A program made the translations under genes and the position numbers. The notes under the pieces are model-generated. The model saw only the letters and a list, made by a program, of their open reading frames with translations, was not told the origin of the DNA and searched no databases. Shown here one piece after another: positions 14,898 through 53,319 of a stretch of 64,000 bases of DNA. Position 1 is the first letter of the stretch, and each line of letters starts with the position of its first letter. Source of the stretch: an uncultured Planctomycetota bacterium (lineage in GTDB: Bacteria > Planctomycetota > Planctomycetia > Gemmatales > Gemmataceae); contig CAWKHF010000005.1 in assembly GCA_963849325.1 (NCBI GenBank), positions 1 through 64,000 on the forward strand, written 5' to 3'.

Positions 14898-17800
14898 TTA
14901 TCGATTGAGAGGCGAGTGATCTAGGTTTGGTTTCCGTTCTCGGGCGATTCGTTCCTGGAACGTCATCGGCTGCTCACCAGATGAGTCCTCTCTTCCTACG
15001 GGAGGCTGGAGGGCTGGGGGTTGCGTCGAAACGTCACCGTTAACCGGATGATCCGATGCGGAATCTGCTTCCTGTCGCCTGCGAATGCGGGCGGTGATCG
15101 GCTCTTCGGCGGCTGCTTGCTTTCGCTGCACCCTCTGTGGCGTGGTCTCAATAGTGTTGGCGGCTTTCAGTGCCTTGATCCTTTCGGCCAGCTCCGAAAC
15201 GGTCGGACCGTTTTGGTTGCTTGGGTCATGAGCCGTGGCGGATAGACCGGCCTTGAGCTGGTCGCGGAGGCTGGTCAGTTCGGATAGATAGGTGTCGTGT
15301 GCGAACGGCTTGCCCAGGCGTTCGCGGTAGTCACGCAGCTGCGATTCGGCGATGGCCAGGTCCTGCCGGACGCGCACGCACTCGGAGCCGTAGCCGGTGG
15401 CCAGGCGTTCGAGGGCGTTCAGCACGGCACGCGGCCCCTGGTGGTCGCGCGACAACGTAGACAGGCGGGTGATCGCGCCTTCCAGATACACGTCCGGCGG
15501 GAATTGCGGGTGCATGACCATGCCGAACCGCAGGCCCCGGTAGGTGCCGATGGGTACGCGGGTTGTCTCACGGACGTTGCGGGGCAAGCGGTCGATCTGG
15601 TCCGCCAGTGCGGCGGGTGCATCCTTTTGTGACCAGGCGCGTTTGCCGATGGTGACCGGATCGGCGGCATGGGCCGTGGCCGTCGCTTCGTCGGCGGTGA
15701 GTTTTGACAGCCTTTCATTGAGCTTGGCGATAGTGCCTGGCAAGTCGCGGACGCTGCGGCGGGCGACGTATTGCTCGTCCAGGTGGTTCTTTTTCAGGAG
15801 ATTGAGGCGTTGCAATTCGGCGTCGGCCTCGGCCAGCGTGAGCACGGCCGGATTGCCCGACGCTATCGCCTTCACCTCGGCGTAGGAGAGTTCCTGGCTG
15901 CCGATGTCCTCGGCACGGCGGGCGGTGTTGTCGCCTGACATGACCTGGGCGATGAAGCGGGCCTTGGTCTCCAGGGCTTGCCACATGTAGGCATCGAACG
16001 ATCCTTCGGTCACGTAGCGGTAAATCGCCACTTCCTCATTCTGGTTGCCCTGCCGCAGGATGCGGCCGTCGCGTTGCTCAACTTCCGCCGGCTTCCACGG
16101 TGCATCGAGGTGATGCAAGGCGACCAGGCGTTTCTGGACATTGGTGCCGGTGCCCATTTTCTGGGTGCTGCCGATCAGCACGCGGACGGAGCCTTGCCGC
16201 ACTTTCTCGAAGAGCGCCTGTTTCTTGGGGTCCGATTCGGCATCGCCGATGGCGGCGATCTGGTTGCGCGGGATGCCGTGGGCGACCAGCTTCTCGATGA
16301 TCTCTTCATAGGGGGCGTAGCCCCAGGGCGTCGGGTTCACGCCCATGTCGGCGAAAACCATCTGAGTGCCGCGCTTGTCGGCGGTCTCGTTCCAGATGGA
16401 AAAGACGTTTTCAACGAGGCGGTTGACTTTCGATTCCAGGAAGTCCGGTGCTGTGGGCGAAAGCATCCGGGCATCGGTGGCGAGCTTGCGGCCGTCGGTG
16501 GTGATGGCCAGGGCATTATCAACACGCGGGTCCACTTTCTGCGACCGCAGCCGCTCGTAGCGTTCGACTAGCTCCTGTTGCAGCTGGTGCTGCTCCTCGG
16601 ACATCGGGCAGGCAACCACGTCGGGCTTGCCGCCTTGCAGGCGTGGACGTGGCAGGTTCAGCATTTCGGCTGTCTGCACGTCGGAGAATTGCCGGAACAT
16701 CTGCTGAAGTTCCGGCAGGTTGGTGAAGCGGGCAAACCGGCTCCGGGGCCGCAGGCCCGCACCATCTGGCGAGATTTCCATCGTGTCCACGACTTCGCCG
16801 AAAGTGGCGGCCCAGGCGTCAAAATGCTCCAGCCCGCGATCCCGCAGTCCCTTCGGATCGAGGAAACGCTGCATGGTGTACATCTCCACCATCGTGTTGG
16901 AAATCGGGGTGCCGGTGGCGAAGGTGACGCCGTGGCCGGCGTGCTGTTCGTCGAGGTAGCGGGCTTTCATGTACACGTCGAATGCCCGCTCTGAGCCTCC
17001 GGTCTGGATTCCGGCGACACGTTCCATCTTGGTCGGTGTCTCCAAGTTCTTGAAATAATGGGCCTCGTCGATGAAAACGTGATCGACACCGAGTTCATCA
17101 AACACCAGCCCGTCATCCTTCTTGTCCTCGGCCAGCAGGTCTTTCAGGCGTTCGCAGCGGGCGGCCTTCTGTTTCTCGATGGTCTTGATGAGGTTGCGGT
17201 TGGCACCACGTTCGGCGGCGTGCTCCAGCAGCAGCTTGTCGTACTCGGCGATCTGCTCGGTCAGGAACTTCTCCTGGTAATCGCGTGACATGCCGATGCG
17301 CTCAAAACTGGAATGTGTCACGATGATGCCGTCCCACTCGCCGCTGGCGATCTTGGCGGTAAGCATCTTGCGGCGGTCGCGCGTCAGGTCTTCCTTGGCG
17401 GCGACCAGCAGCCGGGCATTCGGGTAGAGCTGCATGAATTCGCGGGCGAACTGCTCCAGCAGGTGGTTGGGGACCACGTACATCGGCTTCTTGATAAGGC
17501 CGGCTTCCTTCATCTTCATGCCGGTGGCGGCCATCGTGAACGTCTTGCCGGCGCCCACGACATGGGCCAGCAGCGTGTTGCCGCTGCTCATGCCGCGCCA
17601 AACGGCATCCTTCTGATGGGGCCGCAGCGTCAGCGTCTGGTTCATGCCGGGAAAATCGAGGTGCGAGCCGTCGAACAGGCGTGGACGCAAATTGTTGTAA
17701 GTGTCGTTGTAGGTCCGCACGAGGCGCTCCGTGCGTTCTGGATCGGAGAAGATCCAGGAGCGGAAACGCTCCTTGATAAGCTTCTGCTTCTCGCGGGCGG

Positions 17801-20759
17801 CCATCGTCGCTTCCTGGTTGATGACGCGCTCCTCGCGGTCGCCATTCTGGATGGTGTCGTAAATGGTTGGCGATTTCATGTTGAGGGCCAGCTCCAGCAG
17901 CCAGGTGCCGTTGGCCCGTCCCGTGCCGTATTCGGATGTTGCACCGACCGATGCTTTCGCGGCGTAGCCGGCGTCGATATTCCAAACGGCGTCCTTCTTC
18001 AGATGACCGATGGGGACCGCGTCCCCCTCGACCTTGAAGAGGTCGGCGGCGAATGCCTGGATGTCGCTTTCAGGAATCCACGGTGCTCCAAGATTGGCGT
18101 CGATGTCGCCGGGCAGCACGTCTTCGGGCTGCACCTCTCGCAGGGCTTTGACATTGCGGGCATATTGCGGTCCGGCGTTCATCGCGGCGGCGAGCTTCGC
18201 TCGGACATTGCCGGAGAGATAGGCGTCAGCCGTCTGCCAGGTCCTGGATTCCGGATCGGGGAAAATCAGGTCGCCTAGCTCGGCGACGATTTCCGCTTTC
18301 TGTTTGCCGTAGAGCGTTCCAATGAAGGGCAGGTCTACCGCTCCCTTCTGGTTTAGTGACACCAGCAACCCTTCCTCGGCGCTGCGGACATGGGTGATGG
18401 GCTGGGTCTTTCCAACCACGTCGCGGGACATGATGGCGGCTTTCGCCGCCTTACCCGTAACCTCGTCGTAATCCTCCAGCGACATGACCAGCATGGCGTC
18501 GGGGTCTTCGCGGAACTTGACCAGGTTGGGCATTCGGCGAATGACGGTGCCGTCGCGGGTTTCGCCAAAGGTGGTTTTGTTGATGGGTCCGTAGGCATTA
18601 ACGAAACGGTCATAGGCATAATTGAGTTCGCGGCGTGCGTCCTGGCGATTGGCCTCGGGCCAGCCTTCATTCTGCGATTGCAGTACGCGGCGTGCCTTAT
18701 CGCGCAGGCCCACGAGGCCGGCCAGGCGTTTTCCGGTCAGCGTTCCATCTGATTTCAGGGCGGTGCCGCCGTAGACGACGGGTACGCCCTGTCCGCCTTC
18801 GGACTGGTAGATGATCTTGTCGTCGCCGATGAAGAAGCTGCCTTCGCTGATATGGCGCTCGGCTGGTGGTGGCGTGAAGGCCGGGGCTCGCTCATTTAGC
18901 ACCGGTGATGCCTGCGGCGGTGCGAATTCCGGCAGGCGATGGATCGCTGTCTTGAGCTGCCCGGTCAGGTCGCCATTGCCAAGGACGCTGAAGCCTTCCC
19001 CGCCGTAGAGCGTGTCCTTGCGGCTCCAGTTGCCCAGCACCATTTCGGGATGGTTCAGGAAGTAGCGGTTGACAGGAACCTCTGCGCCATCGATCAGGAG
19101 CGGGGCGATGCCTAGCCAGTCTGGATCGAGGTGATTGGCCGGCTCCCCAGGAGCCCGCTTGCGAAGAAACACGATGTCGGTCACCACGGCGGTTCCTTCC
19201 CGCTTGAACGCATCCGATGGCAGCCGGATCGCTCCGACGAAGTCAGCCTTCGAGGCGAGGTACTCGCGGATGGCGGCGTTCTGCTTGTCGAGCGTGAAAT
19301 GCGATGTGACCAGCGCCATTACCCCGCCGGGTTTCAGGGCGTCGATGGATTTGGCGAAGAAGAAGTCGTGCAGGGAAAGCTTCTGGCCCTGGTATTCGAG
19401 CTTTACGTCGGCGAACGGGACGTTGCCGATTACGGCGTCGATGCGGTTCTCGGGCAGCTTGCTGTCGCGGAAATTCTCGATGCGGATGTCGTGTTCGGGG
19501 TGGATGGCTCTGGCGATGCGGCCGGAAATGGAATCCATCTCCACGCCAATGAAGCGATTCCCCGGCTTGCCCTGGCCCATGAAATTGCCAATGCCGCAAC
19601 CGGGTTCCAGGATCGTGCCGCCCTCGGGCACGCCTAGCCGGGCAATGGCGTCGTGCATGGAAGCGATGACGGTCGGTGATGTGTAGAAGGCGTTGAAGGT
19701 GGTGCGCTTGGCGCTGTCGTATTCCTCTGGCGTAAGCAACGACTTCAGGTCGCCGCCCAGGGCTCGCCAGCCATCGTCCTTGTAATTGCCGCTGACAGGA
19801 TCGGGAAAAAGGGAGAGTGCGACCGGCCCGAAACCACAGAAGCGGGAGAGCTGCTGCTTTTCCTCTGCGGTGGCAGGTCGCTGCTCGCGCTCAACGACCT
19901 TCAGCGTGCGGATGGCAGCAATGATGTCGCGAGCCTTGGATTTTTCGCCGCTGGCGATCGGGGTGGGCTTTGGCTGCCTGACCGGTTCTTCCTGCCTGGC
20001 TGAAATGAATGGCGGCGGTGCGTCGAACTGCAAACTGAGCTGCGTGCCCATCATGGCGTGATTTCCTTCTGCTGGCGTTACCGGCCCCGCCGTCGGGGCC
20101 TGATGGCGAGCAGAAAAATCAGCCCCAGCCGGAAGCTGGGCATCCTTGGCCGGACCATCGTGGGAAGGAGCACCATTGCACGCGGGTAATGGGGTGGGGT
20201 CCCCGTTCCCGCTTGCAATGGCCGGCGGGCTGATTACAGTGCGGTCGCTCGTGGCCCCAGGCGGGGCTGGCGTGTCAGGAGGGGAATTGCCGGAGATGGA
20301 ATCAAAGAGTGTCGGTTGGCGGCGTGATGCTTTTACCCGCGCCGTGTAGGATGGCGGAGAAAGAGCATTGCCGCGTCGAGGAAAAGCGCCTCGCTGTCGT
20401 CCTGCGATGACGCGGCTGACAAACGATCCTCCATTTCCTTGACCGCTGTCTCCAGCGCCTCCAGGGCGATCTGGACCGGATCGGTGCCCGGCCTCAGTGG
20501 GATCAGCAGGCGCGTCCAGCCCTCGTGGCTGGTCTTCAGCTCCCTGGCGAATTGCTCCATTGTCGTTAGGAGCTTCCGGTCTTTCCGGAGCTGGTCGTAC
20601 ATCTGCGGTTGCTGTTGCAGGAGTTCGAGAACGATGGTCTTGTACTGCATGGTCATCTCCTTGTGTTTCAGGGGGCGATTGGTCTTGAGGCTCAGCGTTG
20701 GTGTCTGGGTCGGTGGGGAAGAGTGAGGACTGGTGCCAGTCGGGGGGCTTCCTTGCCAT
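14898..20759 (-). CDS. Large DarB-like adenine methyltransferase plus SNF2/SF2 helicase (alternative start at 20054)
   Basis: MTase motifs LEPGCGIGNF and IGNVPF; helicase motifs HVVGAGKT, IDEAHYFKN, ATGTPISN, GTGTNVQ, EQRDGRILRQGN. Confidence 0.92.
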   Translation of the reverse strand: MARKPPDWHQSSLFPTDPDTNAEPQDQSPPETQGDDHAVQDHRSRTPATATADVRPAPERPEAPNDNGAIRQGAEDQPRGLDAPADPTEAGHRSGPDRPGGAGDSGQGNGGSFVSRVIAGRQRGAFPRRGNALSPPSYTARVKASRRQPTLFDSISGNSPPDTPAPPGATSDRTVISPPAIASGNGDPTPLPACNGAPSHDGPAKDAQLPAGADFSARHQAPTAGPVTPAEGNHAMMGTQLSLQFDAPPPFISARQEEPVRQPKPTPIASGEKSKARDIIAAIRTLKVVEREQRPATAEEKQQLSRFCGFGPVALSLFPDPVSGNYKDDGWRALGGDLKSLLTPEEYDSAKRTTFNAFYTSPTVIASMHDAIARLGVPEGGTILEPGCGIGNFMGQGKPGNRFIGVEMDSISGRIARAIHPEHDIRIENFRDSKLPENRIDAVIGNVPFADVKLEYQGQKLSLHDFFFAKSIDALKPGGVMALVTSHFTLDKQNAAIREYLASKADFVGAIRLPSDAFKREGTAVVTDIVFLRKRAPGEPANHLDPDWLGIAPLLIDGAEVPVNRYFLNHPEMVLGNWSRKDTLYGGEGFSVLGNGDLTGQLKTAIHRLPEFAPPQASPVLNERAPAFTPPPAERHISEGSFFIGDDKIIYQSEGGQGVPVVYGGTALKSDGTLTGKRLAGLVGLRDKARRVLQSQNEGWPEANRQDARRELNYAYDRFVNAYGPINKTTFGETRDGTVIRRMPNLVKFREDPDAMLVMSLEDYDEVTGKAAKAAIMSRDVVGKTQPITHVRSAEEGLLVSLNQKGAVDLPFIGTLYGKQKAEIVAELGDLIFPDPESRTWQTADAYLSGNVRAKLAAAMNAGPQYARNVKALREVQPEDVLPGDIDANLGAPWIPESDIQAFAADLFKVEGDAVPIGHLKKDAVWNIDAGYAAKASVGATSEYGTGRANGTWLLELALNMKSPTIYDTIQNGDREERVINQEATMAAREKQKLIKERFRSWIFSDPERTERLVRTYNDTYNNLRPRLFDGSHLDFPGMNQTLTLRPHQKDAVWRGMSSGNTLLAHVVGAGKTFTMAATGMKMKEAGLIKKPMYVVPNHLLEQFAREFMQLYPNARLLVAAKEDLTRDRRKMLTAKIASGEWDGIIVTHSSFERIGMSRDYQEKFLTEQIAEYDKLLLEHAAERGANRNLIKTIEKQKAARCERLKDLLAEDKKDDGLVFDELGVDHVFIDEAHYFKNLETPTKMERVAGIQTGGSERAFDVYMKARYLDEQHAGHGVTFATGTPISNTMVEMYTMQRFLDPKGLRDRGLEHFDAWAATFGEVVDTMEISPDGAGLRPRSRFARFTNLPELQQMFRQFSDVQTAEMLNLPRPRLQGGKPDVVACPMSEEQHQLQQELVERYERLRSQKVDPRVDNALAITTDGRKLATDARMLSPTAPDFLESKVNRLVENVFSIWNETADKRGTQMVFADMGVNPTPWGYAPYEEIIEKLVAHGIPRNQIAAIGDAESDPKKQALFEKVRQGSVRVLIGSTQKMGTGTNVQKRLVALHHLDAPWKPAEVEQRDGRILRQGNQNEEVAIYRYVTEGSFDAYMWQALETKARFIAQVMSGDNTARRAEDIGSQELSYAEVKAIASGNPAVLTLAEADAELQRLNLLKKNHLDEQYVARRSVRDLPGTIAKLNERLSKLTADEATATAHAADPVTIGKRAWSQKDAPAALADQIDRLPRNVRETTRVPIGTYRGLRFGMVMHPQFPPDVYLEGAITRLSTLSRDHQGPRAVLNALERLATGYGSECVRVRQDLAIAESQLRDYRERLGKPFAHDTYLSELTSLRDQLKAGLSATAHDPSNQNGPTVSELAERIKALKAANTIETTPQRVQRKQAAAEEPITARIRRRQEADSASDHPVNGDVSTQPPALQPPVGREDSSGEQPMTFQERIARERKPNLDHSPLNR
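20333..20656 (-). CDS. Hypothetical helical protein nested out of frame in the 5' part of the helicase ORF
   Basis: Strong RBS AAGGAG before ATG; globular-looking sequence MQYKTIVLELLQQQPQMYDQLRK... Confidence 0.7.
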   Translation of the reverse strand: MTMQYKTIVLELLQQQPQMYDQLRKDRKLLTTMEQFARELKTSHEGWTRLLIPLRPGTDPVQIALEALETAVKEMEDRLSAASSQDDSEALFLDAAMLFLRHPTRRG

Positions 20760-20866
20760 AGTCGGGAACCTTCATGTGCATCCGGTTCCCGGCAGTGGGC
20801 TTCGCTGTCGGGCGATTGGCTCCCGAGGCGTTTCTTGCTCTTGGTCGTCGTATCTGCCCGGCATAG

Positions 20867-21076
20867 TCATCTGGACCTGCCGTGGCCGTGTCCGGAAGCT
20901 GGTGATCCGAACACTTCCTTCAATAGACGTGTAGCGGCGACCCCGGCCATGACGATCATCGAGCCGATGGCGACGGATTGCAAAACCATCGCCATGCGTT
21001 CGTTCTTGCAGTTGTTCGACATCATCTGGGCCTGCGGGCCAAGGTCGGAAAGGTTATAGGTCGGTGGATAGGTCAT
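20867..21076 (-). CDS. Small protein with one hydrophobic helix and a basic tail
   Basis: 69-aa ORF with RBS GAGG, in the operon with its neighbours. Confidence 0.65.
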   Translation of the reverse strand: MTYPPTYNLSDLGPQAQMMSNNCKNERMAMVLQSVAIGSMIVMAGVAATRLLKEVFGSPASGHGHGRSR

Positions 21077-21100
21077 GGCCGCCTCGGAGACGATTCGTTA

Positions 21101-21568
21101 CTAGAACGGCACTTCCTGCCCGGCGCCGATCTCCTGCCGGATCATGTTGCAGACTTCCTGGTAAATCCTCTCCGCTTTGATCCGGGTGGTTGCGGCGGTT
21201 TCGGGGGTGATGGCATGTGCCCATATTTTGTCTGCCTGCTTCCATGCCCAACCTGCGTCGTGAATCCTGTCGAGCACGGCACGGCTGGGTTTGTCCTCAA
21301 ACTTGATCGCCATCTGGCGGTCACGCTTGCTCTCGTAGAGGCGGACACCGAGAGCGGCGTCCGCAGCGATAACGTATGGGTCGGCTGCCGAAGCCCGCAT
21401 CCTCTGGCCAACCCGCTCAGCAAAGCTGGGCCGGTTGTCATTCGATGCCGGGAGATTGTCGTTGGCGGCTGGCGAGGGTTCAGCGATTGCCGTCCCGGTA
21501 TCCGGAGCGGCGGTTTCTGCGGTGGAAGTGTCAGTTGGTTTTTGGTCTGGTGTGCGTTTGCGTGACAT
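21101..21568 (-). CDS. Hypothetical protein ending in EVPF (SSB-like tail)
   Basis: RBS GGAGGA; first gene of the operon leading to the helicase. Confidence 0.75.
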   Translation of the reverse strand: MSRKRTPDQKPTDTSTAETAAPDTGTAIAEPSPAANDNLPASNDNRPSFAERVGQRMRASAADPYVIAADAALGVRLYESKRDRQMAIKFEDKPSRAVLDRIHDAGWAWKQADKIWAHAITPETAATTRIKAERIYQEVCNMIRQEIGAGQEVPF

Positions 21569-22371
21569 ATGATCCTCCATGTCGATAGCCGGGATTTTCC
21601 TTAATCCCTGTTGCCAATCTTAACACAACTATAGGTTGTGGCGCAAGAGGCTGGCTGCGGGTTTTCCGCGTTGTGCTCTGCACAATAAGCGAGAGTTTCA
21701 GCGGCTCTCGGAGCGTTGCTGTGTGGCAAAGCCGCACAACCATTAGTATATGTGCGGTTACCTTCTTGGCGTTTTGGGCTGCCTTTGAGACGGATGCGTT
21801 TCGGGCGGTGAGGCGGTCATCTCCTGCATCGTTTTTTGGGTGCGCCCGCCGGGTATATCGCCCCGGATTTTCGGACGCGGGTCCCAGGGTGCGGCACGAT
21901 GCCGCAGCCTGGGCAGGACGGAAATCCGACAAGGCGGCGCCTCGTACCTGCCTTCAAGACGTGGGGGGCGTTTGGCAGGCATCTCCGACCGGATGGGACG
22001 GCTGGAACCGTTCCATTCGGCCTATGCTGTGCATAGGGGAGATGCCTGATGAGAAGTGAATGACTTTGAGTCTTCGTCATTGTGACATTTTGGGCTGCCT
22101 GGGGCAAGCAAAAGTTGATGGGGTGAGACTGTGTGGCGGGGTGCGCGGTCCCGTGTTGCAAAGCAGCAGACGACGGGCAGAACCCCCGCCCGCCAATGGC
22201 GGTGGCCGCGTTGAGAGACGGGGGATAATGCAGCCGAGCGTCGGCATGGCCTGGGCTCGGAGACTTTGGTTATTGACCTGTATTCCAGCTAACGAGCGTG
22301 GGGTGCCATACCGATAGGGGGCAGGGGTACTTACCCGCAACAGATAGCGTGGGTACGGATCGTGGTCCGGT

Positions 22372-22474
22372 ATGTGATTGCACCAGCGGTCCGGAGGGGG
22401 CGGTAGCCGCCGGTAATCCGGCCGAGCGTATGCGGAGCCCGTAGGGACGCGGTCGCCTGGATGGCGAGGTGCCC
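22372..22474. repeat. Structured repeat A, copy 1 (upstream of the dead relaxase)
   Basis: TGCACCAG..GGAGGGGGCGGTAGCCG[hairpin]CGAGCGTATGCGGAGCCC..GGTCGCCTGGATGGCGAGGTGCCC, homologous to 33162..33267. Confidence 0.9.
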
Positions 22475-22730
22475 AAGGGGTATCGGGTTTATCCTCCGGA
22501 CCAAGGGGAGGGCGAAGACGAAAGCAAGGCTACGGCGGGGAATGGGTACGGGAATGGTTACTTGCAGGGCAGGTGGGCATTCAGTCCTGTTGTCGCGGAA
22601 GGGTATAGCCACTGGCTGGCAGGCTGTCAACTGAGCCGATGGCGAGAGGCTGGACACCAGGCTGGGCGAGGGTTAGCGAGCGACCGTTAGGTGTTTGTTA
22701 ACCGATGAGCGGTATCCTGAATCTTAGGGC

Positions 22731-23852
22731 ATGAGACGGATCACGCAATATAGTAGTCCAGCATTCGTCAAGGGGTGCTACGGCAAGGCGGCCCATCACC
22801 GCCTAGGGCGAGGGATGGTGGGTTCGTGGGGCGGGAAAGGCGCTTTCCGGCTTGGCCTCAAGGGTACAGTGGACAAGTTTTCCTTCTTCCGGTTGTGCGA
22901 GAATGTGAACCCCAGGACGGGCGATGCCGTAACGGTCAGAACCCTTGCCAAACGAACTGTGGGTTACATGTTCACGTTCTCTGTGCCGAAGTCGGTCTCG
23001 CTGCTCTACGGCCTGACCGGTGATTCGGGCATCCTGGATGCGTTCCGTGCAGCGGTCGGTGAAAGCATGCGTGAGATGGAACGGGAGATCAAGACGCGTG
23101 TCCGCAAGGCGGGGCAAGATTCCGATCGCGGCACGGGAAACATGGTGTGGGCCGAACTTGTCTACGCTACGGCAGCACCGCTTCGCGGCCGTTGTGATCC
23201 GCAGTTGCATGCCTTTGTGTTTGTGTTCAACATGACCTGGGATGAACAGGAGCAACGGTGGAAGGCGGGTGCATTCCGGGATCTTAAGAGCGATGCCCCG
23301 TATTTTGAGGCGGTGTTCCGCGTTCGCATGGCGAACAAACTGCTGGGCCTGGGCTTCAGGGTAGAGCGGAAGGGGAAGAATGTCGAGATTGCCGGGATAC
23401 CTCCGGATGTTCTCAAACGGTTTTCCCGGCGGACGGAGCAGATCGATGGACTGGTACGGGAGAGGGGTATCCTATACCCGAAGGGGAAACAAGCTCTCGG
23501 GCCGAAGTGCCGGGAAAGGGCGAGAGGCATTCCGTATGGCTTGGAGATTTTGCGGGAGGAATGGACCTCGCGCCTGACTGACCAGGAACGGCAAATGGTG
23601 GCGGCGGTTTACCGGCGCGAGACGCCATACCCCCGGCAGATCAATGCAGAAGCACAGGCGGTCGATCATGCCATCGAGCATTGTTTCGTGGTGCGTGAGG
23701 CGGTGGTGCCGGAGCGTAAGCTGGTTGCGGAAGCGTTGCAACACGGGCTTGGGGCGGTGACAGTCGAGGATGTTACGCGCGAGCTGAGCATGCGACCGTT
23801 GGTCTGGAGCGAAGTTGCGGGTCGCAAAATGGCCCGATTAAACGCTGACTGA
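22731..23852 (+). CDS. MobF/TrwC relaxase paralogue, predicted catalytically inactive, no helicase domain
   Basis: Colinear with 33518.. over ~370 aa, but SYY/DYY became GCY/AHH, YDFTFS became YMFTFS, HTTSR became YATAA and LHAH became LHAF. Confidence 0.88.
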   Translation: MRRITQYSSPAFVKGCYGKAAHHRLGRGMVGSWGGKGAFRLGLKGTVDKFSFFRLCENVNPRTGDAVTVRTLAKRTVGYMFTFSVPKSVSLLYGLTGDSGILDAFRAAVGESMREMEREIKTRVRKAGQDSDRGTGNMVWAELVYATAAPLRGRCDPQLHAFVFVFNMTWDEQEQRWKAGAFRDLKSDAPYFEAVFRVRMANKLLGLGFRVERKGKNVEIAGIPPDVLKRFSRRTEQIDGLVRERGILYPKGKQALGPKCRERARGIPYGLEILREEWTSRLTDQERQMVAAVYRRETPYPRQINAEAQAVDHAIEHCFVVREAVVPERKLVAEALQHGLGAVTVEDVTRELSMRPLVWSEVAGRKMARLNAD

Positions 23853-23930
23853 AGGTTGCGCATGACCTGTGGTTTATGCTATGTATCAATTTTCGTTAGT
23901 AATTCATGAGGCACCAAGGAGGGTAAGACC

Positions 23931-24230
23931 ATGAACAAGAATGAACTGATTGAAGAAATCGCAGACAGGACCGACCTTACTAAAGCAAGGGTTACAAAAG
24001 TGGTGGATGCCTTCGTCACGGCCGTATCGAAAGCGATAGCGAAGGGCCACGATGTTCGCATTGTTGACTTTGGTACGTTTACCGTAGTACACCGTCGCGC
24101 TTCCGAAGGCCGTAATCCACGTACAGGAGCCGTAATCACGATTACTGCGCAAAACAAGCCAAAATTCAAGCCAGGAAAGGCACTGACTGAGGCGGTAAAC
24201 AAGGCATCGAAGAAAAAAGGGACTTCTTGA
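23931..24230 (+). CDS. hup: HU-family histone-like DNA-binding protein
   Basis: MNKNELIEEIA..FGTF..GRNPRTG..PKFKPGKAL signature. Confidence 0.95.
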   Translation: MNKNELIEEIADRTDLTKARVTKVVDAFVTAVSKAIAKGHDVRIVDFGTFTVVHRRASEGRNPRTGAVITITAQNKPKFKPGKALTEAVNKASKKKGTS

Positions 24231-24261
24231 AGAGTGCCGAAAGCAGCTGATAGAAGGATGG

Positions 24262-24552
24262 TCAGGGAGCAAGAGATGCTGATGCTAATTTCGTCAGATT
24301 ATTAATGTTGACCCGCTTCGGGAGACGCGGTCTGTTCCAGTCGATTTCGGCAAGGATCATGTCGCCATGGAGTGTGTATAGTGCTCGTACCAGGCCATGT
24401 GCGGATAGCAGGTCATTAAGGTATTGGCTATGCCGTTCGATGAAAGTGTCGGTGTAGGCAACAATGTCGCCTACCCGGATTGGATTGGATGGGTCGGCTT
24501 CCAGCGTAGTCATGCGAAGAGGCATGTTAGCGGCAGTGGCGGAGGCTGTCAA
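24262..24552 (-). CDS. Small hypothetical protein (SH3-like appearance)
   Basis: IRVGDIVAY..LAEIDWN..KRVNINNL; start uncertain. Confidence 0.5.
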   Translation of the reverse strand: MTASATAANMPLRMTTLEADPSNPIRVGDIVAYTDTFIERHSQYLNDLLSAHGLVRALYTLHGDMILAEIDWNRPRLPKRVNINNLTKLASASLAP

Positions 24553-26826: not shown

Positions 26827-27744
26827 GGGCGGCCTCCCGAGTCAGCGGCTTGCGTGCTAGCCTCGCCCGGTTGTAGCCCGTGCAGGAAATCCACGGCTCT
26901 CTGGGCGTGGGCAGCCGCCTGGAAGATGGCGCGCTTGTCCTCCTTCAGAACCTTAAGCCAATGGTCCAGATAGGCAGCGTGGTCGTCGCGTGGCTCGGGG
27001 GTGATGCCGAGGTCGCAGCAGAGGAATGCAGCCCCGATCTCGGCGACCAATTCCTCGCGGGCGTAACCCTCGTCGCCGAACTTCTTGCGGCCGAAGTCGC
27101 GGTCGAGGCGCGACGGGTGCTTCGTCCAGTGCGTCATCTCGTGGGCCAGCGTAGCGCAATAGCTCGTCGGCATCCGTGAAGGACACGAAGGGCGGCATCT
27201 GCACGTAATCGGGTTCGGCGGCATAATACGCCTGGTTTCCGCCGTGGCGGATGTCGGCCCCGGTGTTGGCGAAGAACAGGTCGGCCGCCTCGTTGCGCTG
27301 TACCGGGTCGAGCTGCGGAGCGGCGGCGGCGTAGAAGTGCGGCGGAAGCCCCTCGATCTGCTCGACGTTGAAAACGGTATAGCCCTTCATGAAGTAGATG
27401 TCGCGCTCGCTCTCCTGGCCGTCTTCAGCGGTTTCGGTCCGCCTGATGCGGTCGGCGTAGACGACCAGCGATCCCTTGGAGCCTTTCCTGACACTGGCGT
27501 TCAGTTCTTTCGCCTGCTTGAACGTCATCCAGATGGGAGCGGCGAAGTTCTGGGACATGGCTGATGCCCAGAGCATCAGCACGTTGATTCCGTTGTAGGG
27601 CTGTCCGCCCGCTCGCAGCGGACGGGTGATGCGTCCGGCGGCGTGTTCGGCGTTCCACGGCTTGAACCAGGGACGGACGCCTTTTTCGAGGTCGGCGATG
27701 ATAGCGTCAGTGACGCGGGTGTAGAGGTCAGTGCGTATGGTCAT
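26823..27744 (-). CDS. ardC: ArdC antirestriction ssDNA-binding protein with zincin-like domain (frameshift near 27165)
   Basis: DLYTRVTDAII..PWFKPW..YNGINVLMLW..WMTFKQA..YTVFNVEQ; LAHEMTHWT, YAREELVAEIGAAF. Confidence 0.92.
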
Positions 27745-27757
27745 GGTTGCCTCCCTC

Positions 27758-28039
27758 TCAATAATCTTCCGGCAACAGAACCGTCGTCGCCGAGCGGTCT
27801 GCTTCGGTGATAATCCAGAAGCGCTGGTCACCGGTGCCGTAGGCCGACAGGAACCCGCCGTTCCCTTGAGTTAGTGCGGCATCATTTTCGGCGGCATCGT
27901 CTGGGGAAACATCGCCCCAGTCGCCAGCGGCGTGGCGGCTCAAGCCTTCGTAGACCACATGGCTGTCGAGGCGTGACTGGGCATTTGCCGTGATGACGAC
28001 CTGACCCAGTGGAAATTTGGAATGAAGTATCTTGGTCAT
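27758..28039 (-). CDS. Plasmid-related small protein (RHxxGDWGD family), paralogue 2
   Basis: FPLGQVVIT..RHAAGDWGD..FWIITEADRSATTVLLPEDY. Confidence 0.85.
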   Translation of the reverse strand: MTKILHSKFPLGQVVITANAQSRLDSHVVYEGLSRHAAGDWGDVSPDDAAENDAALTQGNGGFLSAYGTGDQRFWIITEADRSATTVLLPEDY

Positions 28040-28109: not shown

Positions 28110-29585
28110 CTGCTATGTGAAGTGGATAAGCCACGGCCAGGGCTGGAGACAGAGTTTTCAAACGACGGCCTATCACACTCTTATACGCGGGTTGGATACC
28201 GCAGGACCGTTTTTCGTCTTGGCCTTCCGGAGCCTTTCATCGTGCGTCGATTCCGTTGCGTGTAATCAACGGACCGGCTGAATGGAATCATCTCGGATTG
28301 CCTGATATAACTCTGCCCCCAGCGTTGGCCGCGGGATATGTTTGGGTAAGCTAACCCTCTATGAAGCTTTAGCCTCCTGAGTTGTGGGCGACACCATCCG
28401 GGCAATCGCCCAGAGGAAGCATGCGATTTCACGGGCTACAGCGGTAGCAACCACGTTCTGGTTCTTGCTGCGCGCGCGCATCGCACGGAACCGCTGGCAG
28501 AGTCGGACCTGCGCCTTCCAGGCGATGTCCAGTACATCTTTCGTCAGACCGTTTTGCCGAAAACTCAAGTATCTGCCTATTCGTGCGGGCAGCCTATAGG
28601 ACCAGGCACCTTCGATCAGTACGCGCCGTGCGTGCTTACTGCCTGCCTTGGTGATTGCCCCCCGCGTGACACGACTTCCTGACGAATGCTCAGAGGGCGA
28701 CAGCCCCAGATAACTGACGAGCTGCCGGGGATGGGCAAAGCGATTAAAGTCGCCGATCTCGGAGACCAGGATGACGGCAGAGATATGCGAGATGCCACGC
28801 ATCGCCTGAAATGCTTGCACGACAGGCGCGAGGGACCAACTCGGCAATAGGCCTAAAATCTGTTGCTCCAACCTGGCGAGCCGGTCCTGACTGTCCCGGA
28901 TTGCAGCGAGGTTCTCCTCGATGAGGATGTGATGGGCGGGATGGCCGAACGTCTGCTCCCGAATCCACCTGATATGCGTCTGGCTCCAGTTAGCCTTACG
29001 GGGATAAATTCGTCCGTGACGAAGCAAGAATCCCCCAAGTTGCTGACGGTATCTCTTGACGGTCTCCATCGCCGCAATGCGTGTACGCACGAGGTCGCGC
29101 ATCGCTTCATGCGCCTCATCCGGTACCCAGATCGGGGTCAGATCCCCGGCGCGATGTAGCCGCGCCAGCTCTAGTGCATCGCGGCGATCATTCTTGACGC
29201 GAACGCCTTTCTTGGTGGGCGTGTGGGATGGAGCAATGACGACGCATTCATGGCCCAAGCCAGTAAGTTGACGTTGAAGGGCATAGCCGCAGGGCCCTGC
29301 CTCGTAGCAGAAGAACAGCTTGGAGTAGTTGCCGGCGAGTTTCTTGACAAGCTTCAAGACTGCCATCGGCTCGTTGGCGATCTGGCCGTAATAGCGGACC
29401 TCGCCGTCCCGGCGATCCTCGGCGATGGCAACGGCGATTGTCTCTTTGTGCGTGTCAAGTCCGATAAATGCTGTATTCTTGGTCATGGTTTACCTCCCTA
29501 TGATTGAGTCCCTGCGGTGGACCATCCGCCGCAATACTCGTGTATCACAGCGGAGGTAAGCCACAGACGATTTCATTCATACAGC
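28110..29585 (-). mobile_element. IS110-family element; ends approximate; long 3' non-coding end
   Basis: Transposase with ~100 bp of 5' and ~245 bp of 3' non-coding DNA; imperfect subterminal inverted repeat TATGTGAAGT / ATTTCATTCATA. Confidence 0.7.
28359..29486 (-). CDS. IS110-family DEDD transposase/recombinase
   Basis: GLDTHK, YEAGPCG, KNDRRDA; C-terminal YLGLSPSEHSSG..GAITKAG. Confidence 0.95.
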   Translation of the reverse strand: MTKNTAFIGLDTHKETIAVAIAEDRRDGEVRYYGQIANEPMAVLKLVKKLAGNYSKLFFCYEAGPCGYALQRQLTGLGHECVVIAPSHTPTKKGVRVKNDRRDALELARLHRAGDLTPIWVPDEAHEAMRDLVRTRIAAMETVKRYRQQLGGFLLRHGRIYPRKANWSQTHIRWIREQTFGHPAHHILIEENLAAIRDSQDRLARLEQQILGLLPSWSLAPVVQAFQAMRGISHISAVILVSEIGDFNRFAHPRQLVSYLGLSPSEHSSGSRVTRGAITKAGSKHARRVLIEGAWSYRLPARIGRYLSFRQNGLTKDVLDIAWKAQVRLCQRFRAMRARSKNQNVVATAVAREIACFLWAIARMVSPTTQEAKAS

Positions 29586-29899
29586 CTTTCAGAAAATGAA
29601 CGGTCAGCCCCGACCGGGGCCTTCCGGCACTCCTCAAAAACCCGTCGCGCCGGTGCGTAGCGAGCCCAGCGACCGGGCAAGCTGAAAATTGGGTGGAGAC
29701 CTTCAGGGGGAACCGATTTTCTGCTTGCCCGGACCGGCGCCGGGTTTATAAGTGCCGGTAATGAAGGCCCAGGTGCGGGGTGGGTTGCCGTGAAAGAAGG
29801 AAGATGGCTGCTACTTGGCAGCATGCATTGGCGGACGCGCGTGGCCGCCCTGGCCGGGATTGTTCGTGGCTTTTGCGGCTGTGCAGGTTCTTTGGTCTT

Positions 29900-29960
29900 T
29901 TGCACCAGGGCACTGGAGGGGGCGGTAGCCGTCGCGTACTCGCGACCGAGCGTATGCGGA
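29900..29960. repeat. Structured repeat A, copy 2 (5' part only), fused to repeat B
   Basis: One mismatch to 33169..33229. Confidence 0.9.
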
Positions 29961-29967
29961 CCCGCTT

Positions 29968-30120
29968 CAGACGGGAGCTTCAGCGACGGTCAAGCGAAAG
30001 GCCGAAGGCTTCCGCTGGCGGAAAGCGGCCTTGGCAGCTTGACCCGCCCGGCGGCGGGATCATAGTGCCGTGAATGAAGGCCACGGCGGGGCTGGCTTAC
30101 GAGTGAAGAAGGAGAGTGGC
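29968..30120. repeat. Repeat B, copy 2
   Basis: Homologous blocks to 26157..26352. Confidence 0.75.
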
Positions 30121-30300
30121 CGGAAGCTGCACGCGGGCAATGGCGATGCCCATCACAAGCGATTCGGAAGGAGAGAAAGGCCCGAGCGAGGGTTATGACC
30201 GGACCGCTGATTGTCAGGACCGACGGCGCGGAGATAGCACAGCCCGCGCAATGGCAAAAGCACGATGACGCAAGCTTGCTGGACGGCAGCCCGAGCCTGT

Positions 30301-33080: not shown

Positions 33081-33161
33081 CCAACGGCGTAACAGTTATT
33101 AGTCCACGCCGTTTAGAATAGCGCATAAACGCTTTCAAAGAGGTTAATGGCAGGTAAGTCA

Positions 33162-33267
33162 ATGTGACTTGCACCAGGGCGCTGGAGGGGGCGGTAGCCG
33201 TCGCGTACTCGCGACCGAGCGTATGCGGAGCCCAGAGGCACCCGGTCGCCTGGATGGCGAGGTGCCC
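33162..33267. repeat. Structured repeat A, copy 3 (upstream of the full relaxase; candidate oriT/ssi region)
   Basis: Closing stem GCACC/GGTGC, hairpins GTCGCG-TACT-CGCGAC and TCGCC-TGGAT-GGCGA. Confidence 0.9.
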
Positions 33268-33517
33268 GAAAAAGCACGTCAGCCTTGGACGGAAACAAAA
33301 ACCATCACCCCAAACCAGGTGTCCAGGAGATGCTGGCAAGTGGAGACCGCAAAAAGCTGGGACGAGCAGTAAAATCCCTACCCCTAGGGGGGTGGCGTGG
33401 AGGTGACATAGCGGTGACAATGCGAATGTAAGAACCAGAGAAAACCGGGGCTGGCCGCGGTGGACCGCAGCATCGTTAAGAATGCGTTAACGAAATCGTG
33501 CTATTCTAAAATTAGGC

Positions 33518-36189
33518 ATGATCCGAATCACGCAACAGGATAATGCCAGGTCAGCCAAGTCGTACTACACGGCCGGCGATTATTACAGCGAAGGCCAGGA
33601 AATCATCGGCCTTTGGGGAGGCAAGGCCGCGTCCATGCTCGGGCTCGAAGGGACGGTGGATAAGTTCTCATTCGAGCGTCTGTGCGACAATCTCCATCCT
33701 AAAACCGGCGAACACCTGACGATGCGGACGCGCACTGAACGGCGTGTCGGCTATGACTTCACCTTCTCGGTGCCCAAGTCGGTGTCGCTGCTCTACACGC
33801 TGAGCGGCGATCAGGACATCATGGAAGCATTCCGTGGGGCGGTCGATGAGACGATGCGGGAGATTGAGAAGGAGATGAAAACCCGCGTGCGGAAGAAAGG
33901 CCAGGACACGGACCGCACCACGGGCAACATGGTTTGGGCGGAGTTCATTCACACCACGTCGCGGCCGGTGGACGGCCTTCCCGACCCGCAGCTTCACGCC
34001 CATGTCTTTGTGTTCAATACGACCTGGGACAAGGAAGAGGACCACTGGAAGGCGGGCCAGTTTGCCGAGATCAAGCGGGATGCTCCATATTTCCAGGCGG
34101 CGTTCCGCGTCCGGCTGGCGAATCGGCTCCAGGGCCTGGGTTTAGGTATTGAACGCAAGCGGGATGATTTCGAGGTCGCCGGGATTCCGAAGGATGTGCT
34201 GAAACGCTTCTCGCGGCGAACGGCACTGATCGAGAAGGTGGCGGAGGAGCGTGGCATCACCGATGCGCGCCGCAAGGACGTGCTTGGCGCCGAGACGCGC
34301 GAAAAGAAGGCGAAGCCCCTGAGCCTTTCGTCACTGCGGAAGGAATGGAATGCACGGCTGAGCGACAGCGAACGCGACGCGGTTGCAAGCGTCCATCGCC
34401 GCGAGCATGCACCCGAGATACCGGAGCGTGGCGAGAAACTGGCGGTGGACCATGCCATCGGGCATTGCTTCGTCCGTGAGGCAGTGGTGCCCGAACGCAA
34501 GATCGTGACCGAGGCCCTGAAGCGTGGGCTGGGCACGGTGACGGTCGCCGGGGTGCAAGGTGAAGTGAACTCCCGGCCGCTGATAAGCAGCGAAATCACA
34601 GGCCGGAAAATGGCAACCACGACCGAAATGCTGGGCCTGGAGTCGCGGCTGATCGAATTCGCCCGCAGCGGCCGTGGGCGTTGCCGCCCGCTGGCCGACC
34701 CGAACCGCCCCATCTCCCGCGACTGGTTCAATGAAGGGCAGAAGGCAGCGGTCCGGCATGTCCTGGGCTCCCGCGACCGCGTGATGGTTATCCGTGGCGC
34801 GGCGGGAACCGGCAAAACGACGCTGGAACAGGAAATCGGCGAAGCGTTGGCTGAGGCTGGGCGGCCGGTCGTCGCCCTGGCCCAGTCGGTCAAGGCCAGC
34901 CGCGAGGTGCTTCGCGAGGAAGCAGGCTTTGCCAATGCGGACACTATTGCCCGGTTCCTGAAGGACGAGCAGATGCAACTTAGCGCAAAAGGTGGAGTCA
35001 TCCTGGTGGACGAGGTTAGCCAGGTCGGCACGCGGGACATGCTGAAGATATTCGGCGTCGCCGAAGCGGTGGTGCGCGCGTCCTTCTCGTGGGGGACCGC
35101 CGGCAGCATCGCAGCGTGTCGGCGGGCGAGCCGCTCAAGCTGCTGGAAGACCTGGCTGGCTTGCCGGTTGCCGAGGTCACGGAGATCCTGCGTCAGCAGG
35201 GCGACTACAAGAAAGCGGCGGAATACTTGAGCGATGGCCGCGTGGGCGAAGCGTTCGAGGAACTGGACAAGCTCGGCTGGGTCAGGCAAGTGCCCGATGC
35301 TGAACGCTTCCAGCAGCTCTCCGCCTGTTATCTCGCGGCGGTGGCTGAGAAGAAACGCAATGGGGAGCAAAAGACGGCGCTCGTCGTGACGCCGACGCAC
35401 GCTGAGGCTGATCGCATCACGGGTGCGATTCGCGCCGGGCTCAAGGAAAAGGGCACGCTCGGCAAGGAACGCATCATCAACGTCTGGCTCGCGACCCACC
35501 TGACGGAAGCGGAGAAAACGGACCCGACGCAATATGATCCGGGGGACATGCTCCAGTTCCATGAAAATGCGAAAGGCCATACGAAGGGATCGCGGCTGGT
35601 CCTGGGCGAGGGCGACGTGCCGCCGACCGAACTGGCCGCGCGCTTCGAGGTTTACAGGCCGGGACAGCTTGCGCTGGCGGCGGGTGATCGTATCAGGGTC
35701 ACCGCTGGCGCGAAGACCAGGGACGGCCATCGCCTGAGCAACGGGTCGCTGTTCACGGTGCAGGGATTCACGAAGCGCGGTGATATTATCGTTGATCGCG
35801 GCTGGGTGATCGACCGGGATTTTGGCCATCTCACACAGGGCTACGTTGTTACGAGCTATGCGAGTGAAGGGTCCACCGTGGACAAGGAATTCGTCGGCAT
35901 GTCCAGTGAATCCTTCCCAGCGACAAACCAGCGGACGACGTATGTCGCCCTGACGCGCGGACGGGAACAGGTCACTGTATTCACGGACGACAGGGCAGCA
36001 CTACTGAAGGCCATGAGCCGCCCGGACGATCCCATGTCTGCGACACAGCTTGCCGAATCCACGAACGGCCAAGCCGTATCGCGGAATGGCCCAGCCTTCG
36101 GCCGCAGGCACGCGGTCCCGGCGGTGCACGTAATGCAGCCAAATACGGAGAGACGTTTGCCCGAAAGGGGGCTGGATCATGAGCGATGA
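33518..36189 (+). CDS. trwC: MobF (TrwC/TraI-type) relaxase-helicase (frameshift near 35080)
   Basis: SYY..DYY, YDFTFSVPKSVS, HTTSRP..PQLHAH; helicase GAAGTGKT, VDEVS, GDRRQH, RQ, YVALTRGR. Confidence 0.93.
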
Positions 36190-37181: not shown

Positions 37182-38376
37182 TCAACGCGTCGGCGGCTTC
37201 TTGACTGCGATTTCATCGAGATAGTCTGCCCACCATTGCATCATCTCGCGGCGCTCCGATAGGTACTGGGCGTGATTGTAGGCGGCCCGGACGCTATTCC
37301 GTTCGCTGTGAGCGAGTTGACGTTCTATGACATCCGCCCGGAAACCGTGCTCGTTCAGGATAGTGCTGGCCGTGCTGCGGAATCCGTGCCCCGTGGTGCG
37401 GGAATGGTAGCCCATGCGATAGAGCGCATAGAGCATAGTGTTCTCGCTCATGAATGTCGCGGGATTGTGCTCGTTCGGGAAGAGATAGGGACGGTTGCTT
37501 GAATGCTTCTGGAGTTCTCGGAGAACAGCAATTGCTTGTTTCGACAGGGGCACGATATGGAGTTCGTTCATCTTCATGCGTTCCGCCGGAATTCGCCAGT
37601 CCGCCTTGTCCCAGTCGATCTCCATCCATTGTGCTCCCCGAAGCTCCTGGGTGCGGACGAAGGTGAGCAGCAGGAGTCGGAGGCGCTAGCCTAGTCTGGA
37701 CACTGCCGTCATAGCGCTCCAGCTTTTTCAGGTACTCCGGCAGGTCGCTGGCTTTCAGGAACGAGTAATGCTTGGCAACCGGAGCCTTTAACGCTCCGCG
37801 CAGGTCGGGGACTGGGTTGCGTTCGGCCCGCCCAGTAGCAATGGCATACATGAAGACTTGCCCGCAAATCTGCATGACACGCCGGGCGGTTTCCAGGTTG
37901 CCTTTTGCCTCGACGACCCTGGCCATTTCCAGCACCTCCGGCGGAGTGATCTCGGTTACCGGCCTTTCCCCCAGCTTCGGAAGGATATGTTGTTCCAAGC
38001 GGGCAAGCATGGTTTTGGCGGAGCGTGGCGCCCATTCGTGCGCGCGTTTCTCATACCATTCGCGGGCAATGGTCTCGAACGCATTGGCGCTGTGCAGGAC
38101 GGTCAGCCGCTTAACCTCTTTCTTTGCCTCCCCAGGGTCCTTGCCGGCGGCCAGCAGTTTGCGGGCTTGCGCCCGCCGGTCGCGCGCGTCGCCCAGGCTA
38201 ATCTCCGGATACACACCGAGAGCCAGGAGCTTTTCCTTGCCAGCAATGAAATATCGCAGCCGCCAGTATTTGCTGCCGGATGGCGTGATAACCAGGAAAA
38301 GCCCTTCGCCGTCGGCGATTTTGTAAGGCTTGTTTTTCGGTTTGGCGTTGCGCACCTTGGCATCCGAGAGCGACAT
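37182..38376 (-). CDS. P4-type tyrosine integrase with arm-binding domain (frameshift near 37680)
   Basis: MSLSDAKVRNAKP..DGEGLFL..YWRLRY..LGVYPEISL; RMKM..HIVPL, HGFRSTAS, QLAH, AYNH. Confidence 0.93.
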
Positions 38377-38638
38377 GGGGTACATCCTGATGTTGGTGGG
38401 GTATTGGTCCGAGAAATGTACCCCGAAATCTGGCTGGATGTCAATAAGCTTGAATGGGCGCGGTTGATCGACCGGCTCGGCGAAAGTGGCTGTCAGCCTT
38501 GATTGTGTCGATGTGGATGGACGCGGTTGGCCAGGGATTTGGCGACCCCTACGGTCTTCACATTGATGAAATAACCGATTGTAGTATTGACCATATCTTA
38601 TGATGCGAGAAATGGAGATACCCCGGTTTTGTACCCCT
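38377..38638. other. Putative intact attP of the P4-type integrase, core = tRNA 3' end
   Basis: 38540..38554 reads CCGTAGGGGTCGCCA on the minus strand (tRNA-Glu-like 3' end with CCA); GGGGTA/TACCCC arm-type motifs on both sides. Confidence 0.7.
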
Positions 38639-48606: not shown

Positions 48607-48679
48607 CGTTCTCCCCTTTCGGTTTGTTCGCGCTCTGAGTTTTGCGCCATTGGGGCTCTGTCCGGGTTGCCCGCGGTCT

Positions 48680-49510: not shown

Positions 49511-49673
49511 CTTGAGCCTCCTACCTGGATGCGAGCGTCATGCTAGATTTCGCAGGACGAAAATGGATTGCATTGCGATTGCGAGTTTCATCCACACGCA
49601 CACACGCCAGTACACCTCGCCCGCGGCAACTGACATTGAATCCGTGAGTTCGATCGGATTGTAACTTTGCACG

Positions 49674-53034: not shown

Positions 53035-53037
53035 GGC

Positions 53038-53319
53038 TCACCTTCCTGTGCTTTGGGCAATGACGTGGTTCCAAAACGGGTTGGCGAAGATCAGAATCAT
53101 CGAGACCACGAGACAATAGATGGCAATGGATTCGATCATCGCCAGTCCCACGAACAAGGTTCGTGTGATGGTGCTTGCGGCATCGGGCTGTTGTGCCAGC
53201 GCATTCAAAGCCGTGGAGACCGCCCGCCCTTCGCCCAGCGCGGGCGCGATGCTCCCAAGTCCCATCGTGGCGCCGGCGGTTATGATTGAAACGATCGCGA
53301 TAAGTGTCATGCTGTCCAT
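53038..53319 (-). CDS. atpE: N-ATPase c subunit
   Basis: ALGEG, AQQPD loop, LAMIESIAIY. Confidence 0.95.
   Translation of the reverse strand: MDSMTLIAIVSIITAGATMGLGSIAPALGEGRAVSTALNALAQQPDAASTITRTLFVGLAMIESIAIYCLVVSMILIFANPFWNHVIAQSTGR

Follow-up and report, generated by a model that had tools for sequence, protein, structure and literature searches.

The window analysed here is a stretch of 64,000 nucleotides from an uncultured planctomycete of the family Gemmataceae (GenBank assembly GCA_963849325.1, contig CAWKHF010000005.1, positions 1 to 64,000). On its plus strand a repeat of ~100 nt (22377-22476), termed repeat A, is followed by an open reading frame (ORF) of 373 amino acids (22731-23852) and then by a gene of the HU/IHF family (23931-24230). 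A full-length MobF relaxase gene, referred to by its first position as 33518, lies 9.7 kb downstream of the ORF. An initial annotation, made from the sequence alone, had described the ORF as a catalytically dead paralogue of this relaxase, with its own copy of the upstream repeat and an adjacent HU gene. The principal features are as follows.

22377..22476, plus strand: repeat A copy 1, a structured element of ~100 nt located 255 nt upstream of the short gene (102 bits with covariance model R1)
22650..22730, plus strand: promoter-proximal region containing GTTAA/ATTAG-N6-7-TTAAC and a GATA-containing box, then the ATG
22731..23852, plus strand: putative pseudo-relaxase of the short class, 373 aa, TrwC fold, without helicase, with C16, H22, H23, M80, Y145, A149, C155 and F162 at catalytic or signature sites
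23931..24230, plus strand: HU/IHF-family gene, 99 aa (PF00216, E 5.9e-34), 78 nt downstream of the short gene and with its own AAGGAGG ribosome-binding site
33518..36189, plus strand: full-length MobF relaxase-helicase gene with all catalytic residues, in two frames with a frameshift near 35071

A relaxase fold with an altered active site

The 373-aa ORF is uninterrupted and colinear with the 33518 relaxase, as had been described; BLASTP aligned residues 1-368 with 213/368 identities (58%, E 9e-150). TrwC (Pfam PF08751) was the sole domain match, with an E-value of 2.5e-48. The helicase domain AAA_30, which was matched at E 2e-26 in the 33518 protein, gave no match in the short protein, the stop falling at codon 374. 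All of the scaffold motifs named in the initial annotation, FTFSVPKSVSLL, TGNMVWAE, DAPYF and VLKRFSRRT, were found in the ORF, and each of the listed substitutions was confirmed (SYY to GCY, DYY to AHH, GYD to GYM, HTTSR to YATAA, LHAH to LHAF and SEGQE to RLGRG). The same holds for the reported stop just after RKMA with no helicase, the C-terminus lying six residues past GRKMA.

Sequence alignment to TrwC (PDB 1omh, E 1.7e-26) placed M80 at Asp85, Y145 at His150, A149 at Arg154, H160 at His161 and F162 at His163. The proposed correspondence to Asp85 and the histidine triad is thereby confirmed, and of the metal site (TrwC H150, H161 and H163) and Asp85 only H160 is kept, the others being replaced by Y145, F162 and M80. 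The N-terminal tyrosine positions were mapped by aligning the 33518 protein with F TraI from its first residue, which pairs Y16/Y17 and Y22/Y23 with the TraI tyrosine pairs, and through the numbering of TrwC, in which we take Y18 and Y26 to be the catalytic tyrosines. In the window's short protein these positions are occupied by C16-Y17 and H22-H23; the primary catalytic tyrosine (TrwC Y18, F TraI Y16) is replaced by Cys16, and the second tyrosine pair (TrwC Y26) by His22-His23, the latter replacement being shared with the homologue P0004.

Structure prediction, which had been named as a check, recovered the TrwC fold. An AlphaFold model built from a 39-sequence alignment had a predicted local distance difference test score (pLDDT) of 78.4 and a predicted template modelling (pTM) score of 0.83, and its best Foldseek matches were TrwC-DNA complexes (1omh_A, E 2.7e-16, TM 0.78). 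The protein scored 128.3 bits with the NCBIfam MobF model NF041492, above the cut-off of 100, and 134.1 bits with TIGR02686 (relax_trwC), below the cut-off of 145.5. As it passes the NCBIfam MobF cut-off, annotation pipelines will label it a relaxase.

The short class and the selection acting on it

A search of 5.8 billion proteins returned 971 relatives at E <= 1e-10, and the best 120 of these were aligned together with the 33518 protein. The resulting 121 closest proteins split into two clean classes, 66 full-class and 55 short-class. Short-class proteins are typically ~371 aa, have no helicase and end just past GRKMA; 40 of the 55 are 368-405 aa long, and the other 15 (294-347 aa) are internal-Met calls or fragments. 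Position by position, in 33518 numbering, the classes compare as follows.

Tyr16: full class Y in 65/65; short class C in 28, W in 11, L in 1 and Y in none of the 40 with an N-terminus
Arg149: full class R in 66/66; short class C in 22, S in 12, W in 12, A in 5, G in 3, T in 1 and R in none
Pro155: full class P in 66/66; short class Cys in 50/55
His162: full class H in 66/66; short class Y in 41, F in 6, R in 4, S in 2, C in 1, A in 1 and H in none

A profile search with the short class yielded nearly the same set, together with two new members, P0123 and P0124, both with Arg at position 16. The class then totals ~57 protein clusters at 90% identity, and Tyr at position 16 is absent from all 42 members with an N-terminus (40 aligned plus P0123 and P0124). 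Other active-site residues are mostly retained, namely Y17 (38/40), Y22 (38/40), Y23 (35/40), His145 (49/55) and His160 (41/55). The window's protein carries the signature of the class (C16, A149, C155, F162 and G28) and belongs to a subclade with P0004-P0007, P0021 and the metagenome contig L088. This subclade has undergone extra losses, Asp80 being replaced by Met and His145 by Tyr or Phe, and the second tyrosine pair is also lost in the members whose N-terminus is seen (the window's protein, P0004 and L088).

When 82 N-terminal domains were placed on a maximum-likelihood tree, the 43 rows of the short class all fell into one clade, nested among full-length relaxases, with a stem of 0.18 substitutions/site and a Shimodaira-Hasegawa-like approximate likelihood-ratio (SH-aLRT) support of 100, as calculated from quick searches. 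The same single clade was recovered, again with SH-aLRT 100, when the C-terminal tail and 15 signature columns were left out. The 43 full-length sequences that represent the short class in the tree all have open frames of ~371 aa, at within-clade path lengths of up to ~1 substitution/site. The class is 56-66% identical to full-length MobF relaxases of Planctomycetota, and its genome loci were found in metagenome-assembled genomes (MAGs) labelled Planctomycetota, Planctomycetia or Gemmataceae, with one unclassified 'bacterium' and one MAG labelled Alcaligenaceae. The initial annotation had called for homologues to be examined for the same catalytic losses, and the pattern is shared by 55/121 of the closest proteins. 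The short class is probably an old family of helicase-less MobF relaxase paralogues with a single origin, carried mostly on integrative or mobilisable elements of Planctomycetota type.

A metagenome scan with the window's protein as query returned L088 as the only close relative with DNA, plus three fragments of the short class (L089, L090 and L094). Five further candidates were rejected as short-class loci. All are full-class genes, frameshifted in L070 and L076, split by frameshifts in L044 and L016, and interrupted by stops in L117 (411-1607).

Selection was assessed by the pairwise Nei-Gojobori ratio of non-synonymous to synonymous substitution rates (dN/dS), which was 0.14-0.27 in 11 short-class pairs compared with 0.08-0.16 in 21 pairs of full-length N-domains. 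The closest pair, the window and L088, shares 90% amino-acid identity at an unsaturated dS of 0.21, with a dN/dS of 0.231. The underlying counts were 50.2 synonymous differences over 273 sites and 39.8 non-synonymous differences over 846 sites (Fisher p = 3.5e-11 against neutrality), and third codon positions hold 50 of the 90 differences. By these data, purifying selection acts within the window's subclade despite its extra catalytic losses, at about half the strength seen in the active domain.

Changes in composition accompany the loss of catalytic residues. Full-length proteins have 179 columns with a conservation of 95% or higher, and the short class maintains 107 of these at 90% or higher; the catalytic columns are among those that changed. 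New residues have become fixed, with Gly28 in 100%, Cys155 in 90% and Arg27 in 82% of the class. The mean net charge is +19 in 39 short proteins compared with +3.5 in 48 full-length N-domains, a gain of ~15 positive charges. Cysteine makes up 1.92% of residues in the short class and 0.47% in the full class and recurs at positions 16, 149 and 155, which line the former active site (C16, A149 and C155 in the window); together with the retained His145 and His160 it might form a new metal site.

As the pattern of losses is shared, the members form a single clade and dN/dS lies below the neutral value, the short protein is best read as a maintained pseudo-relaxase and not as a decaying pseudogene. 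The suggestion in the initial annotation that the gene had been repurposed is upheld to this extent, and the outcome that would have refuted it, neutral divergence with no homologue sharing the losses, is clearly contradicted.

Repeat A, neighbouring genes and the element

The copy of repeat A upstream of the short gene is about 87-89% identical to a second full copy that lies upstream of the full-length relaxase gene, and is ~96% identical in L088. A partial copy is located between the two.

33168..33269, plus strand: repeat A copy 3, 249 nt upstream of the full-length relaxase gene (97.9 bits)
29899..29982, plus strand: repeat A partial copy, its first 64 nt 97% identical to copy 3, beside an IS110-family transposase gene (28359-29486, minus strand)

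The repeat is also present on another contig of the window's genome, in which the covariance model detected four full copies and one partial copy. Elsewhere it was located in L007 (6750-6849), L011 (13234-13335), L012 (11376-11473) and 20 more loci, by BLASTN and then by the covariance model, which matched 3/11 genomes with this relaxase type and 0/20 without it. It was always found on the relaxase strand, at a variable distance upstream or downstream, and lies downstream of the short gene in L011, L012 and L069. Thus the upstream repeat described in the initial annotation is real, and its upstream placement is specific to the window's subclade.

When 26 copies were aligned, their consensus had four main stems, comprising an outer CACC...GGTG stem with its arms ~95 nt apart, a GGGC...GCCC stem and two hairpins. 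Of the cells in its 19 pairs 95.5% are paired, compared with 31-45% with slid partners, and 9/19 pairs show compensatory changes; none of 500 shuffles reached these values. The inner hairpin illustrates such changes, reading GCCGG-TAAT-CCGGC in copy 1 and GTCGCG-TACT-CGCGAC in copy 3. Single-sequence folding of the repeat was uninformative (z-scores of -1.0 to +0.3), and the structure emerged only in the 26-sequence alignment. No Rfam family matched repeat A at gathering thresholds in a scan of the whole window, and hits at E up to 10 on 33100-33330 were at chance level.

Relaxases of the TrwC type recognise a hairpin followed by a conserved stretch. Since repeat A contains a covarying hairpin and then a conserved CCG.AGCG..GCG.AGCC stretch, it may be the origin of transfer (oriT) of these elements. 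Two long-range stems covary too, which is unusual for an oriT, and the plus strand has G-U pairs; the repeat may alternatively be a structured RNA or single-strand DNA element. The partial copy and copy 3 also form direct repeats (64 nt, 97%) around a 232-aa gene and a 695-aa ResIII/DEAD helicase gene, and the interval 29899-33269 has the appearance of 3.3 kb duplicated or inserted at the repeat.

The promoter-proximal motif was common to short and full-length genes in an alignment of the 130 nt upstream of six short and nine full-length genes. It is present at 33440-33517 and upstream of relaxase genes in L011-L024, the GATA box being followed by a TAAAAT-like sequence, and in the window this region is ~95% identical to that of L088. 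The shared motif could be an operator. Promoter and terminator scans around the short gene gave results at chance level, and a look-up of RNA records for 22300-24300 returned none, the four aligned runs being DNA contigs.

The adjacent gene was confirmed as a member of the HU/IHF family, but the partnership implied in the initial annotation is unsupported as a general feature. No copy was found in any of 77 related genome loci by tblastn with the HU protein, and only one other HU gene, 34% identical, is present in the window's genome. Homology between the window and L088 ends directly past the stop codon of the short gene. In the metagenome contig X3 (record 21) the 3' end of the short gene is joined to an HU gene, with ~166 extra bases between them, and contig X2 (record 8, 4066 nt) continues as L088 does, without HU. 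In the close subclade, HU thus stands behind the short gene in the window and one metagenome contig and is missing from two others, and this limited distribution marks it as a recent, lineage-restricted neighbour and not as a partner of the family.

In all five loci with enough flanking sequence (the window, L011, L012, L020 and L069), the short gene is followed 2.7-9.7 kb downstream by a full-length relaxase gene on its own strand. What lies between the two genes varies and includes many transposase genes, of IS3, IS110, ISL3 and DDE_5 types. In the window the catalytic residues of this 'real relaxase', as it was initially called, are complete, but the gene itself is split, its frames running from 33518 to 35230 and from 35089 to 36189 with the break inside the helicase domain. 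A tyrosine integrase gene (37182-38385) is similarly split between ~37637 and 37696. The two breaks may mean that the element is decaying or that the assembly, with the genome 84.7% complete, contains indel errors. Besides the full-length relaxase gene in the window, four more of this type are present in the genome, making five, together with one short gene.

On the left the short gene is flanked by conserved neighbours.

14898..21580, minus strand: genes for a 1953-aa SNF2-type helicase protein and a 159-aa protein, which elsewhere flank a short-class or a full-length gene

These two genes adjoin the short gene in the window, L011 and L012, and the full-length relaxase in L044 and L016; that they flank either gene suggests duplication of an origin-proximal module. 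The 1953-aa protein (14898-20759, minus strand) has an SNF2/ResIII helicase region with weak similarity to DISARM DrmD and PLD-type anti-phage proteins, is conserved at 70-90% identity beside the relaxase module in several loci and is possibly encoded by a leading-region anti-restriction or defence gene. An ArdC gene lies at 26953-27831 on the minus strand. Further to the right a type IV coupling protein (T4CP) is encoded at 41187-42782, and no mating-pore genes were seen in the 64-kb window. Cargo-like genes at 47893-60877, among them a second operon for an F/N-type ATP synthase and genes for phosphoketolase, PPK2 and a methyltransferase, separate the transfer genes from a second integrase (59546-60877) beside a tRNA gene (61071-61159, minus strand); the arrangement suggests one large tRNA-integrated island.

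Proposed role and comparison with known systems

The reading that we favour, to which a probability of roughly 0.55 is assigned, is that the short protein is a selectively maintained, non-nicking protein of relaxase fold, which would bind the transfer-origin-like DNA of its element and modulate the full-length relaxase. The basis for a maintained pseudo-relaxase is the fold and most scaffold motifs kept, the catalytic residues lost, the basic shift, the purifying selection, the canonical relaxase on the same strand and the related promoter region. Binding would be retained without cutting, the likely target being the hairpin and single-stranded flank of repeat A, or the T-strand, and the bound protein would modulate processing by the full-length relaxase. 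The preferred direction is negative. The protein would occupy or block oriT, either as self-restraint of an integrated element or in competition with, or exclusion of, the four sibling elements; the DNA binding, oriT blocking and fertility inhibition proposed in the initial annotation are inferences of the same kind. A negative role is favoured because most elements of this type function without a short gene; the main alternative direction is positive, as a melting or loading factor.

Several points weigh against this proposal. Selection is ~2-fold more relaxed in the short class than in the active domain, and one short-class copy, L022 (3416-4518), was found broken, over three frames. Repeat A does not keep a fixed place with respect to the short gene, so that a specific pairing of protein and repeat is shown for no locus. 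Among representative genomes the family is rare; of 401 sampled at class level, 72 have a relaxase of this type and 69 of these lack a short paralogue, the only carriers being the window's genome and two entries that duplicate L011 and L020 (their 377-aa open frames were treated as duplicates and not counted again). Several members are annotated from an internal Met (343 aa), which makes translation of the first 28 residues uncertain. With both the full-length relaxase and the integrase frameshifted, the copy in the window may sit in a dying element.

A bolder form of the proposal, put forward tentatively and with the odds well against it, would make the short class the first pseudo-relaxase family, controlling conjugative DNA processing by occupying repeat A. 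In the window's lineage, the protein, having lost every catalytic residue, and a private repeat A, with a recognition hairpin altered by compensatory substitutions, would then form an orthogonal lock-and-key pair, which could serve for exclusion or fertility inhibition among the genome's five related elements.

The least unlikely of the alternatives is a positive relaxosome accessory, in which the dead trans-esterase domain would bind and melt oriT, or keep hold of the T-strand, and thereby allow the full-length protein to load its helicase part. The same-strand relaxase in 5/5 loci and the related promoter region would suit such a factor; in F, TraI divides the work in this way between two copies of a single protein. 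According to a 2026 preprint, one TraI trans-esterase domain melts the F oriT to let a second TraI load as helicase, and IHF inhibits nicking, which fits the HU/IHF-type gene beside the window's copy. However, 69/72 relaxase-bearing genomes in the class sample have no short paralogue, the full-length protein has its own complete trans-esterase domain and the HU adjacency is not conserved.

It is improbable that the short protein binds nucleic acid at a target other than oriT, as a transcriptional regulator at the GTTAA...TTAAC motif or as a binder of repeat A RNA. The strong shift in positive charge, the operator-like motif upstream of both short and full-length genes and the RNA-like features of repeat A (long-range covarying stems and G-U pairs on the plus strand) are in keeping with this explanation, but the best conserved parts of the protein are the scaffold motifs with which relaxases bind single-stranded DNA. 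We know of no relaxase-fold protein that acts as a transcriptional regulator or RNA binder.

More improbable again is an enzyme with a remodelled site that uses the second tyrosine of the first pair, the DYY pair present in most members or a new cysteine for a different strand-transfer or recombination reaction. Most members keep Y17, Y22, Y23, His145 and His160 at the frequencies given above, and cysteine recurs at three positions lining the former active site. However, position 16 is Trp, Leu or Arg in 14/42 members, so no nucleophile is conserved there, and the window's copy has also lost the second tyrosine pair, the Asp and two of the three His, yet is under the same purifying selection. 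Judged from these residues, residual or new catalytic activity in the window's copy is unlikely.

Least probable of all is that the gene is a functionless leftover of a relaxase module that was duplicated or accreted in tandem, its frame open only by chance or hitch-hiking: the transposase-filled intervals, the frameshifted relaxase and integrase, the broken L022 and the dN/dS above that of the active domain agree with it, but all 43 full-length tree sequences are open (~371 aa) at path lengths of up to ~1 substitution/site, dN/dS is ~0.2 with neutrality rejected for the closest pair (p = 3.5e-11), new residues are fixed, and the truly decaying L117 shows the opposite pattern, with in-frame stops although its catalytic residues are all kept.

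Relaxases are treated as the defining enzyme of conjugative and mobilisable elements, and databases count them by domain hits. Short-class genes therefore inflate relaxase counts and can cause elements to be mis-assigned as mobilisable, nicking by the known mechanism being precluded. If the favoured reading is correct, a relaxase copy that selection keeps for binding alone would add a new kind of component to the relaxosome, or a new kind of transfer regulator, and would be a natural experiment that separates DNA recognition from catalysis in HUH enzymes. Repeat A is a concrete candidate for the origin of transfer, or for a new RNA, of Planctomycetota mobile elements.

A full-text literature search found no description of an inactive or pseudoenzyme HUH relaxase family. 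According to passages of a preprint on the Planctomycetes plasmidome (10.1101/2024.01.22.576637), 29 MOBF relaxases are present in 21 chromosomes, sometimes two per genome, and conjugation among members of the phylum is unreported. Truncated or inactive MOBF copies are not mentioned in those passages, and the supplementary tables of the preprint may list such proteins as relaxases. We regard the short class as a pseudoenzyme derived from the MOBF relaxase and accompanied by a structured DNA or RNA element absent from Rfam.

Among known systems, the function proposed here is closest to that of the oriT-binding accessory proteins TrwA, TraY, TraM and IHF and of the fertility-inhibition factors FinOP, PifC, Osa and FipA, which modulate the action of the relaxase at oriT or inhibit the transfer of related elements. 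These factors have unrelated folds (ribbon-helix-helix, HU/IHF and others) and none is a degenerate copy of a relaxase. Like pseudoenzymes in general, the short class has lost its active-site residues but keeps its fold and binding surface and remains under purifying selection. Full-length MobF relaxases from Planctomycetota, within which the class is nested, have the same upstream motif. The short protein has the same fold, domain family and cleft scaffold motifs as the trans-esterase domains of the MOBF relaxases TrwC of R388 (N293) and TraI of F, pKM101 and pCU1, and like them it is encoded in a conjugative or mobilisable element with a coupling protein nearby. Unlike these domains, it has no helicase and is strongly basic; its primary tyrosine, second tyrosine pair, Asp85, Arg154 and two of three histidines are replaced, and it coexists with a canonical relaxase rather than being the relaxase of the element.

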